NCBI RefSeq assembly: GCF_053078305.1
Contig: NZ_CP166879.1
DNA: 64,000 nucleotides
Strand: one strand, 5' to 3'
Made by a program: the position numbers and the translations under genes. Position 1 is the first letter of the stretch. Each line of letters starts with the position of its first letter. The notes under the pieces were generated by a model that did not search any database, was not told the origin of the DNA, and saw nothing but the letters and a program-made list of their open reading frames with translations. Shown piece by piece: positions 15,062 to 18,313 of the stretch.

Positions 15062-15757
15062 ATGCGAATTCTGGCTATCGATACCGCGACAGAGGCCTGC
15101 TCTGTCGCCCTGTGGAACGACGGTACTGTCAACGCTCATTTTGAGCTTTGCCCTCGTGAACATACTCAACGAATCTTACCGATGGTGCAGGATATCCTGA
15201 CCACCAGCGGAACTTCCCTGACTGATATTAACGCTCTGGCTTACGGGCGCGGCCCCGGTAGCTTTACCGGCGTGCGCATTGGTATTGGCATCGCGCAAGG
15301 GCTGGCGCTTGGCGCGGAATTACCGATGATTGGCGTCTCCACGCTAATGACGATGGCGCAAGGGGCGTGGCGCAAAAACAGCGCAACACGCGTGCTGTCA
15401 GCCATTGACGCGCGAATGGGCGAAGTTTACTGGGCCGAATATCAGCGTGATGAAAACGGTATCTGGCACGGTGAAGAAACCGAAGCCGTACTCAAACCCG
15501 AACTCGTTCATGAACGAATGCAACAGCTTTCCGGGGAATGGGTGACGGTAGGTACAGGCTGGCAAGCCTGGCCGGATCTCGGTAAAGAGAGCGGGCTGGT
15601 TTTGCGCGATGGCGAAGTGTTACTCCCCGCTGCAGAAGATATGCTGCCGATTGCTTGTCAGATGTTTGCCGAGGGTAAAACGGTGGCGGTGGAACATGCC
15701 GAACCGGTTTATTTACGTAACAACGTCGCATGGAAGAAACTTCCGGGCAAAGAATGA
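15062..15757 (+). CDS. tsaB: tRNA threonylcarbamoyladenosine biosynthesis protein TsaB
   Basis: 231-aa ORF, YeaZ/TsaB sequence. Confidence 0.93.
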
Positions 15758-15796
15758 ATCTTAAGAGTATGCCCTGAGAAAAAAAGGAGTCGCATC

Positions 15797-16378
15797 ATGG
15801 CGGTTCAAAAGAATGTTATCAAAGGCATACTGGCAGGTACGTTTGCGCTAATGCTGAGCGGTTGTGTCACTGTGCCGGACGCCATTAAAGGCAGTAGTCC
15901 CACGCCGCAACAAGATTTAGTTCGGGTGATGAGTGCGCCGCAGCTGTACGTTGGTCAGGAGGCACGCTTTGGTGGCAAAGTGGTTGCGGTACAAAACCAG
16001 CAAGGGAAAACCCGCCTGGAAATTGCTACCGTACCGCTGGACAGCGGAGCCAGACCGACGCTGGGAGAACCTTCTCGCGGTCGCATTTATGCCGATGTGA
16101 ACGGTTTTCTGGACCCGGTGGATTTCCGTGGACAACTGGTTACGGTAGTCGGGCCAATCACTGGTGCGGTTGACGGAAAAATCGGCAACACGCCCTATAA
16201 ATTTATGGTGATGCAAGTAACGGGTTACAAACGTTGGCATTTAACCCAGCAGGTGATTATGCCGCCTCAGCCGATTGATCCATGGTTTTATGGCGGTCGT
16301 GGCTGGCCCTATGGCTACGGCGGATGGGGCTGGTATAATCCCGGCCCCGCGAGAGTACAAACAGTTGTAACTGAATAA
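15797..16378 (+). CDS. yeaY: Slp-family outer-membrane lipoprotein YeaY
   Basis: 193-aa ORF, signal peptide with lipobox LSGC. Confidence 0.9.
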
Positions 16379-16398: not shown

Positions 16399-16430
16399 AG
16401 AAACAGCGGCTGGTCCGCTGTTTCTGCATT
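16399..16430 (+). terminator. Hairpin downstream of yeaY, overlapping the distal FadR box of fadD
   Basis: AAACAGCGG-CTGGT-CCGCTGTTT inverted repeat followed by CTGCATTCTT. Confidence 0.55.
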
Positions 16431-16510
16431 CTTACGGTAAAGATAAAAATAAATAGTGACGCGCTTCGCAACCTTTTCGTTGGGTAATTATCAAGCTGGT
16501 ATGATGAGTT
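16405..16510 (+). promoter_or_regulatory. fadD promoter region with two candidate FadR operators
   Basis: CTGGTC-containing boxes GGCTGGTCCGCTGTTTC (about 16405-16424) and ATCAAGCTGGTATGATGAGTT (16490-16510). Confidence 0.6.
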
Positions 16511-16582
16511 AATATTATGTTAACGGCATGTATATCATTTGGGGTTGCGATGACGACGAACACGCATTTTAGAGGTGAAGAA

Positions 16583-18268
16583 TTGAAGAAGGTTTGGCTT
16601 AACCGTTATCCCGCGGACGTTCCGACGGAGATCAACCCTGACCGTTATCAATCTCTGGTAGATATGTTTGAGCAGTCGGTCGCGCGCTACGCCGATCAGC
16701 CTGCGTTTGTGAATATGGGGGAGGTAATGACCTTCCGCAAGCTGGAAGAACGCAGTCGCGCGTTTGCCGCTTATTTGCAACAAGGGTTGGGGCTGAAGAA
16801 AGGCGATCGCGTTGCGTTGATGATGCCTAATTTATTGCAATATCCGGTGGCGCTGTTTGGCATTTTGCGTGCCGGGATGATCGTCGTAAACGTTAACCCG
16901 TTGTATACCCCGCGTGAGCTTGAGCATCAGCTTAACGATAGCGGCGCATCGGCGATTGTTATCGTGTCTAACTTTGCTCACACACTGGAAAAAGTGGTTG
17001 ATAAAACCGCCGTTCAGCACGTAATTCTGACCCGTATGGGCGATCAGCTATCTACGGCAAAAGGCACGGTAGTCAATTTCGTTGTTAAATACATCAAGCG
17101 TTTGGTGCCGAAATACCATCTGCCAGATGCCATTTCATTTCGTAGCGCACTGCATAACGGCTACCGGATGCAGTACGTCAAACCCGAACTGGTGCCGGAA
17201 GATTTAGCCTTCCTGCAATACACCGGCGGCACCACAGGTGTGGCGAAAGGCGCGATGCTGACTCACCGCAATATGCTGGCGAACCTGGAACAGGTCAACG
17301 CCACCTATGGGCCGTTGCTGCATCCAGGTAAAGAACTGGTAGTAACGGCACTGCCGCTGTATCACATTTTTGCCCTGACCATTAACTGCCTGCTGTTTAT
17401 CGAACTGGGTGGGCAGAACCTGCTTATCACTAACCCGCGTGATATTCCAGGGTTGGTAAAAGAGTTAGCGAAATATCCGTTTACCGCTATCACTGGCGTT
17501 AACACCTTGTTCAATGCGTTGCTGAACAATAAAGAGTTCCAGCAGCTGGATTTCTCCAGTCTGCATCTTTCCGCAGGCGGTGGGATGCCAGTGCAGCAAG
17601 TGGTGGCAGAGCGTTGGGTGAAACTGACAGGACAGTATCTGCTGGAAGGCTATGGCCTTACCGAGTGTGCGCCGCTGGTCAGCGTTAACCCATATGATAT
17701 TGATTATCATAGTGGTAGCATCGGTTTGCCGGTGCCGTCGACGGAAGCCAAACTGGTGGATGATGATGATAATGAAGTACCACCGGGTCAACCGGGTGAG
17801 CTTTGTGTCAAAGGACCGCAGGTGATGCTGGGTTACTGGCAGCGTCCGGATGCTACCGATGAGATCATCAAAAATGGCTGGTTACACACCGGCGACATCG
17901 CGGTGATGGATGAAGAAGGGTTCCTGCGCATTGTCGATCGTAAAAAAGACATGATTCTGGTTTCCGGTTTTAACGTCTATCCAAACGAGATTGAAGATGT
18001 CGTCATGCAGCATCCTGGCGTACAGGAAGTCGCGGCTGTTGGCGTACCTTCCGGCTCCAGTGGTGAAGCGGTAAAAATCTTTGTAGTGAAAAAAGATCCA
18101 TCGCTTACCGAAGAGTCACTGGTGACTTTTTGCCGCCGTCAGCTCACGGGCTACAAAGTACCGAAGCTGGTGGAGTTTCGTGATGAGTTACCGAAATCTA
18201 ACGTCGGAAAAATTTTGCGACGAGAATTACGTGACGAAGCGCGCGGCAAAGTGGACAATAAAGCCTGA
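16583..18268 (+). CDS. fadD: Long-chain-fatty-acid--CoA ligase FadD
   Basis: 561 aa from TTG at 16583 preceded by AGAGGTGAAG; track ORF starts 22 codons upstream. Confidence 0.92.
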
Positions 18269-18286: not shown

Positions 18287-18313
18287 GACGCCGGTTAATC
18301 CGGCGTTTTTTTT
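18287..18313 (+). terminator. Intrinsic terminator downstream of fadD
   Basis: ACGCCGG-TTAAT-CCGGCGT hairpin followed by T8. Confidence 0.85.

Follow-up and report, generated by a model that had tools for sequence, protein, structure and literature searches.

Two experimentally validated FadR sites, 68 bp apart, are found at the fadD promoter of E. coli (Feng & Cronan 2012, PMC3460868). In that study, FadR shifted the probes of both fadD sites and oleoyl-CoA released it from both, in agreement, according to the authors, with the DNase I footprints made in 1992 by Black et al. Site 1 bound FadR about as strongly as the fadL sites, the binding to site 2 was more than 10-fold weaker than that to site 1, and the two sites of fadD were found to confer modest repression only. 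The same study reported an ArcA site overlapping site 2 by 1 bp, classed the CRP site of fadD as Class I, and described both FadR sites and their spacing as "largely conserved" in Citrobacter, Klebsiella, and Enterobacter. The terms "terminator" and "palindrom" have no occurrences in its text. A 2022 review (PMC9329746) considers -100 a surprising position for a repressor site such as site 2, and states that no in vivo test exists. As the FadR boxes of fadD belong to the textbook sites, finding both again matters little in itself. The comparison presented here has the modest value of addressing site 2, which that review leaves as an unexplained oddity.

FadR sites in the yeaY-fadD spacer

The window, i.e., the whole stretch of 64,000 nucleotides that we analyzed (contig NZ_CP166879.1), carries on its plus strand the yoaA-tsaB-yeaY-fadD-rnd region of E. 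coli. The locus was matched in 5425 of the 5426 complete E. coli genomes, with flanks annotated as yeaY (Slp-family lipoprotein) and fadD (long-chain-fatty-acid--CoA ligase). Their equivalents in MG1655, b1806 and b1805, respectively, are on the reverse strand, and coordinates were converted by taking the MG1655 position as 1906329 minus the window position. The coding sequence of yeaY extends from 15797 to 16378 on the plus strand (ORF list and RefSeq b1806), with its stop TAA at 16376-16378. That of fadD, encoding 561 aa, extends from 16583 to 18268 on the same strand (RefSeq b1805 coordinates), with a TTG start at 16583-16585. The SD of fadD, AGAGGTGA (16571-16578, plus strand), is invariant in the Enterobacteriaceae alignment, and the start codon is TTG (about 75) or GTG (4) in all 80 loci compared, never a synonymous Leu codon.

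Between the two genes, the CRP-cAMP site probe region spans 16437-16484, where the primer fadD-CRP-site-F matches, with a conserved core around 16449-16475; this block is nearly invariant among the 52 sequences aligned. The -10 region of fadD (TAATAT/TATTAT) and the transcription start near A16523 lie in a plus-strand block, 16510-16523, that is invariant in the alignment. We take the start to be 60 nt upstream of the TTG. Black et al. are said to have given the start as 60 bp upstream of the start codon, OD1 as -13 to -29, and OD2 as -99 to -115, positions that presumably map to window 16494-16510 (OD1) and 16408-16424 (OD2). These positions fit the probes and spacing of PMC3460868 as well as the -100 of PMC9329746, and a start near 16523 agrees with the -100 that the review gives for site 2 and with the site spacing of about 68 bp. 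A promoter scan also gave an alternative sigma-70-like pair, TTAATA-18-TATCAT, at 16509-16538, which is found in genomic SELEX too.

Other features of the fadD leader were observed along the way. The block TGGGGTTGCGATGACGACGAAC (16541-16562) is almost invariant among the 52 Enterobacteriaceae sequences, matching the FadR and CRP sites in conservation. There is an in-frame ATG exactly 11 codons 5' of the fadD TTG (window 16550-16585). Its distance and the stop-free frame are kept in about 65 of the 80 Enterobacterales loci, with third-position-like changes, and the peptide read from it is common in Enterobacteriaceae, with different residues elsewhere. This conserved upstream ATG suggests that there is either a FadD isoform with a longer N terminus or an in-frame leader that is translated.

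FadR site 1 (OD1), AGCTGGTATGATGAGTT at 16494-16510, covers the fadD core promoter (-29 to -13). It lies inside the published site-1 gel-shift probe (window 16484-16519; PMC3460868) and is the best match to the FadR PWM in the whole 64-kb window. The first-pass annotation of this DNA had noticed a CTGGT box at 16490-16510, which is indeed present as site 1, but had put it beside the fadD TTG; it is actually 73 nt upstream of the TTG, over the promoter. FadR site 2 (OD2), GGCTGGTCCGCTGTTTC at 16408-16424, is centered at about -107 from the fadD start and lies inside the published site-2 probe GAAACAGCGGCTGGTCCGCTGTTTCTGCATTCT, which corresponds to window 16400-16432, i.e., to the hairpin described below (PMC3460868). 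The CTGGTC core pointed out in this hairpin by the same annotation is found at 16410-16415. Compared with the 17-bp palindromic consensus aaCTGGTCnGACC(T/A)Gtt, taken from PMC9329746, the left half of site 2, CTGGTC(C)G, is perfect and its right half is degenerate. About 107 bp separate its center, at 16416, from the start near 16523 downstream, which places the site away from the -35, -10, and +1 positions that FadR sites overlap at repressed fad promoters.

Judged by sequence alone, the FadR box of the hairpin is within chance expectation. It departs from the 17-bp consensus AACTGGTCNGACCWGTT at seven positions, a match that 1338 17-mers of the window equal or surpass; its PWM score ranks 74 among the 127,968 of the window, where site 1 ranks first, and CTGGTC occurs 44 times in these 64 kb. 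The credibility of site 2 comes from the published binding experiments and not from the motif. The first-pass annotation had named a lack of FadR binding at 16405-16424 as the outcome that would speak against its proposal; the published gel shift is positive at this place and the footprint agrees with it (PMC3460868). With respect to FadR, the finding repeats published fadD sites and was already known. Repression by way of site 2, where binding is weak in vitro, is a candidate role. A literature search for in vivo FadR occupancy gave no usable ChIP-exo paper, and PMC8963472 is without promoter-site tests. Separately, we observed that the site-2 probe is strongly self-complementary, such that annealed oligonucleotides could partly fold as intramolecular hairpins. 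Such self-folding might be part of the reason why site 2 seemed to bind FadR more than 10-fold more weakly.

The hairpin downstream of yeaY

The hairpin starts 20 nt past the TAA of yeaY and is made, on the plus strand, of the 5' arm AGAAACAGCGG (16399-16409), the loop CTGGT (16410-16414), and the 3' arm CCGCTGTTTCT (16415-16425). The arms of 11 nt form a perfect inverted repeat (100% complementary, 6 GC pairs) around the 5-nt loop, and the covariation of the stem described below concerns both. The loop, which varies between species, at the same time provides FadR site 2 with the core of its left half-site. A stem-loop of 9 bp after yeaY had been described at first pass; it is real and represents the inner portion of the 11-bp stem. 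The RNA fold has an energy of -16.8 kcal/mol (z = -5.2), a value equaled by none of 200 shuffles, and the fold of the minus strand reaches -20.0 kcal/mol (z = -5.3). The stem base is overlapped by a weak U-tract, TTTCTGCATTCTT (16421-16433, plus strand), presumably the region of transcript release. In E. coli, this tract has 7 T among the 12 nt past the core arm CCGCTG, with a longest T-run of 3, for a median of 9 T in 53 species.

The hairpin element is single-copy, each of 5425 E. coli genomes having it at one place, which excludes REP/BIME or another dispersed repeat. Rfam covariance models gave no matches at E <= 1 between 15700 and 16700 on either strand, and a known structured RNA family was excluded by this absence of match. 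Two E. coli genomes show rearrangements in the neighborhood. In APEC E12049, a copy of IS200C sits just upstream of the hairpin (junction around window 16393) and parts it from yeaY. In PEC301, which has two places, the match begins only around window 16448, suggesting that the yeaY-fadD spacer was rearranged in this strain as well.

Conservation of the stem and variation of the loop

To place the element in a broader context, we compared 80 fadD loci of species representatives across Enterobacterales, a set without Salmonella, Klebsiella, and Shigella. In 79 of them yeaY is directly upstream of fadD on the same strand, and the contig is too short in the remaining one. Nearly all of the loci have a hairpin past the yeaY stop. 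The hairpin region aligns gap-free across 50 distinct Enterobacteriaceae sequences, among which the stem core ACAGCGG/CCGCTGT is invariant and the outer stem varies by compensation. For example, pair 15-35 is AU in 29 sequences, GC in 15, and GU in 6; pair 16-34 is AU in 43, GC in 3, and GU in 4; and pair 13-37 is GC in 38, CG in 5, GU in 3, UA in 2, UG in 1, and unpaired in 1. Changes on both sides were found for 8 of the 15 stem pairs in these 50 sequences. Covariation scored 0.170, compared with 0.104 +/- 0.010 for shuffles (none of 500 reach it) and 0.056-0.111 for slid controls.

Outside this group, Yersinia, Serratia, Pectobacterium, Brenneria, Erwinia, Pantoea, and others have an unrelated GC hairpin followed by a T-run at the same place after yeaY. 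Orthologous hairpins of other genera have T-runs of 5-7, and the terminator scan called plus-strand terminators at this position in Enterobacter, Raoultella, and Pectobacterium. The scan missed the hairpin of Yersinia rohdei, apparently because its T-run is inside the maximal stem. The weakest T-tracts of the set are those of E. coli and Citrobacter, with 6-7 T in the 12 nt past the core arm (the median of the 53 species being 9). Hence, the conserved feature at this position is a terminator-type hairpin, of which E. coli has a degraded and probably leaky version.

The FadR box in the loop has a different history. We counted 19 loop variants among 53 species, with CTGGT in 8 of them, Citrobacter having, for example, CTCGT and Enterobacter GGCTCAGCC. 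In the full intergenic alignment, the fractions of the majority base at positions 16411 to 16414 are 0.6, 0.3, 0.7, and 0.6, the value of 0.3 being that of the first G of TGG. By comparison, CTGGTA of site 1 is shared by all of the 52 sequences, and there is little or no variation in the -10 region and the CRP core. A substitute distal box is rare in species whose hairpin lacks the FadR box. Among single loop variants, CTGGT ranks first together with CTCAG, and it turns up in several scattered genera; it is also the "central" loop sequence, since most variants are one base away from it. Because of this central position and recurrence, there may be weak selection for FadR binding on the loop. 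In Enterobacter sp. 10-1 (also in locus L015), we observed a FadR-like box, TTCTGGTCTGATAAGAA, just 3' of the hairpin (around 2347-2363 of locus L013) and none inside it. This box resembles fadL site 2 (CACTGGTCTGATTTCTA) and may be of independent origin.

The loop is also polymorphic within E. coli. An exact-word search of the 5426 complete genomes found CTGGT in 4381 and CCGGT, resulting from the change T16411C, in 1024 (19%). The CCGGT allele is present in IHE3034 and many other genomes and was seen in B2-type strains; in one E. coli strain, a G at the top of the stem is replaced by A. The CTGGT/CCGGT polymorphism is a natural test of the importance of site 2. For the bases of site 2 that are critical to FadR, the alignment of 53 species contradicts the description "largely conserved" of PMC3460868, and the region around the site would be conserved because of the stem. 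What is new here is this comparative result, in which the stem is kept and the FadR box is not.

Termination, FadR binding, and related systems

Direct evidence for termination in E. coli was sought in published 3' ends and in a terminator scan. The scan called the E. coli hairpin on the minus strand only, with the tail TTTTCTTTAA, the tail of the plus strand being T-poor. The Term-seq data of Adams et al. 2021 have no 3' end between MG1655 1888017 and 1893787 on the minus strand and so none after yeaY, a negative of little weight given the low expression of yeaY and the fact that dominant ends alone are tabulated. The TERMITe tables also have no 3' end after yeaY, and neither has the supplement of the terminator-prediction paper. 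The Term-seq end assigned to fadD/sroD (MG1655 1888017-1888020) corresponds to window 18309-18312 or thereabouts, in the fadD-rnd spacer, where there is a canonical terminator, GACGCCGGTTAATCCGGCGTTTTTTTT; the 3' end of fadD is also where the sRNA SroD is annotated.

Upon sigma-E induction, yeaY was reported to increase 2.8-fold, fadD 2.2-fold, and rnd 1.5-fold, as one putative unit, and a second sigma-E study gave log2 changes of 1.1 for yeaY and 1.0 for fadD. This co-induction of fadD with yeaY suggests strong read-through. We rejected it as proof of read-through, since genomic SELEX has peaks of the sigma-E, sigma-28, and sigma-70 holoenzymes within the yeaY-fadD spacer and these allow a local promoter. 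Two sigma-E-like motifs are of note here. One, GAAACTT-N16-TCTTA (15736-15763), is upstream of yeaY within the end of tsaB and is consistent with yeaY being a reported member of the sigma-E regulon. The other, GCAACCT-N16-TCAAG (16468-16495), is weaker and lies in the fadD promoter, overlapping the CRP site and FadR site 1; it could explain the sigma-E response of fadD without read-through, but a motif this loose is found about 180-215 times per strand in the window. A terminator function is supported by the comparison between species, through the covariation and the positionally equivalent hairpins with T-runs, and termination in E. coli is probably leaky because its U-tract is poor.

On balance, we think it fairly probable that 16399-16425 is mainly the terminator hairpin of yeaY, and that site 2 is a weak FadR half-site, incidental or at best auxiliary. 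A polymerase coming from yeaY would transcribe the inverted repeat 20 nt past the stop codon, and the 11-bp hairpin, with the U-rich stretch UUUCUGCAUUCUU, would release part of the yeaY transcripts. In double-stranded DNA, the loop and the first bases of the 3' arm make CTGGTCCG, a perfect left half-site for FadR, to which the dimer binds weakly because the right half-site, GCTGTTTC, is degenerate; this is the published site 2/OD2. The repression of fadD proper would come from the strong and invariant site 1 (16494-16510) over the core promoter, and we infer that site 2 has no part in it. The same 27 bp would then act at two levels, RNA and DNA, uncoupled by selection, and site 2 would exist because this loop sequence happens to occur.

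The original proposal was that one element serves both termination and repression. In its stronger form, the element would be the yeaY terminator and also a selected second FadR operator that adds to the repression of fadD. This is unlikely in our view; the effect could come about, e.g., by a higher local FadR concentration or by an interplay with the adjacent ArcA site. FadR does bind the hairpin sequence in vitro and acyl-CoA releases it, an overlap of 1 bp with an ArcA site has been reported, fadL likewise has two FadR sites, and the loop most often seen, in several genera, is CTGGT (tied with CTCAG). However, the affinity is more than 10-fold weaker, the two sites yield modest repression only, and the site is centered around -107 with no in vivo role on record according to PMC9329746. 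The TGG bases are also unconserved across species, the core T is polymorphic in 19% of the E. coli genomes, and species without the box generally lack a substitute distal one. Hence, FadR binding, which is published, and the terminator, which the comparison favors, stand from the original proposal, whereas a selected dual function is unsupported because the FadR-critical loop bases vary between species and within E. coli. A more elaborate possibility, which we regard as very improbable, is that FadR bound at 16408-16424 acts as a roadblock, stalling a sigma-E-driven polymerase at the weak terminator and so raising termination and insulating fadD. Were it true, transcription started by sigma-E under envelope stress would continue from yeaY into fadD and rnd only after acyl-CoA has removed FadR. 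The element would then be a protein-assisted, ligand-controlled terminator, which would account for a repressor site 100 bp upstream of the promoter. Such a position would indeed suit the blocking of an incoming polymerase better than promoter repression. The E. coli U-tract is among the weakest of the 53 species, there is a sigma-E-like promoter upstream of yeaY (15736-15763), and the co-induction decays from yeaY to fadD to rnd (2.8, 2.2, and 1.5-fold). But FadR-dependent termination is a conjecture, the stronger site 1 would block too and make site 2 redundant, and the response of fadD to sigma-E may stem from a spacer promoter. In addition, Citrobacter, with its weak U-tracts, is mostly without CTGGT, and several species with CTGGT have strong U-tracts. 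Accordingly, the idea that CTGGT loops compensate for weak U-tracts was rejected, as no such pattern exists in the 53 species.

Other explanations leave FadR aside. The E. coli hairpin could be a 3' stabilizer or processing structure of a longer yeaY-fadD transcript, or a minus-strand terminator for divergent or antisense transcription from the symmetric fadD -10 region, which we consider improbable. It would fit with the scan calling the minus strand only (tail TTTTCTTTAA), with the energy of the minus-strand fold (-20.0 kcal/mol, z = -5.3), and with the co-induction of fadD by sigma-E in the absence of a plus-strand 3' end in Term-seq. Yet the Term-seq tables do not have a 3' end on the genome plus strand near 18899xx either, the plus-strand T-run is strong and called by the scanner in most other species, and a place 20 nt past a stop codon, with the genes on both sides in the same direction, is the usual setting of a forward terminator. 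Regarding the symmetric promoter, we observed that TTAATATTAT (16509-16518), in the fadD -10 region, comes close to being self-complementary. Since the T-run of the hairpin is also better on the minus strand, a short divergent transcript stopping at the hairpin is a possibility, and the Term-seq tables contain no supporting 3' end for it. Finally, a chance palindrome without function has the weak T-tract in its favor and nothing else. This reading has hardly any probability, considering the z-score of -5.2 against shuffles, the compensatory covariation, and the conservation of a hairpin across the order; the covariation effectively refutes it.

The simplest answer to the oddity of site 2, judging from 53 species and 5426 genomes, would be that the sequence is kept as the 3' hairpin of yeaY, the FadR half-site being a lineage-specific accident of its loop. 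Regulon databases in which any footprinted site counts as functional should therefore be read with caution, and it should be kept in mind that the apparent conservation of a site may really reflect an overlapping RNA structure.

Among known systems, the closest is FadR OD2, i.e., fadD site 2 itself (PMC3460868; PLoS One 7:e46275), whose DNA is identical to ours, the published probe being window 16400-16432. The element resembles enterobacterial intrinsic terminators in its GC-rich stem-loop, the A-tract upstream and T-rich tract downstream, the covariation, and the canonical orthologues. Unlike them, it has in E. coli an interrupted T-tract (TTTCTGCATTCTT), failed the plus-strand rule of the scan, and has no mapped 3' end in accessible data. 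The original footprint of fadD OD2 is reportedly that of Black et al. 1992 (J Biol Chem 267:25513). Repressor-mediated roadblocks are known to stop elongating polymerases in read-through transcription. The likeness to these systems is that of a DNA-bound repressor in the path of the polymerase of an upstream gene, where a block of elongation by FadR is only a possibility. The other obvious relative is fadL, the only other fad promoter with two FadR sites, which are 8 bp apart and also give modest repression (PMC3460868). The fadL sites are equal in affinity and both at the promoter, whereas site 2 of fadD, with its more than 10-fold weaker binding, is found within the 3' hairpin of the neighboring gene, some 86 bp upstream of site 1.
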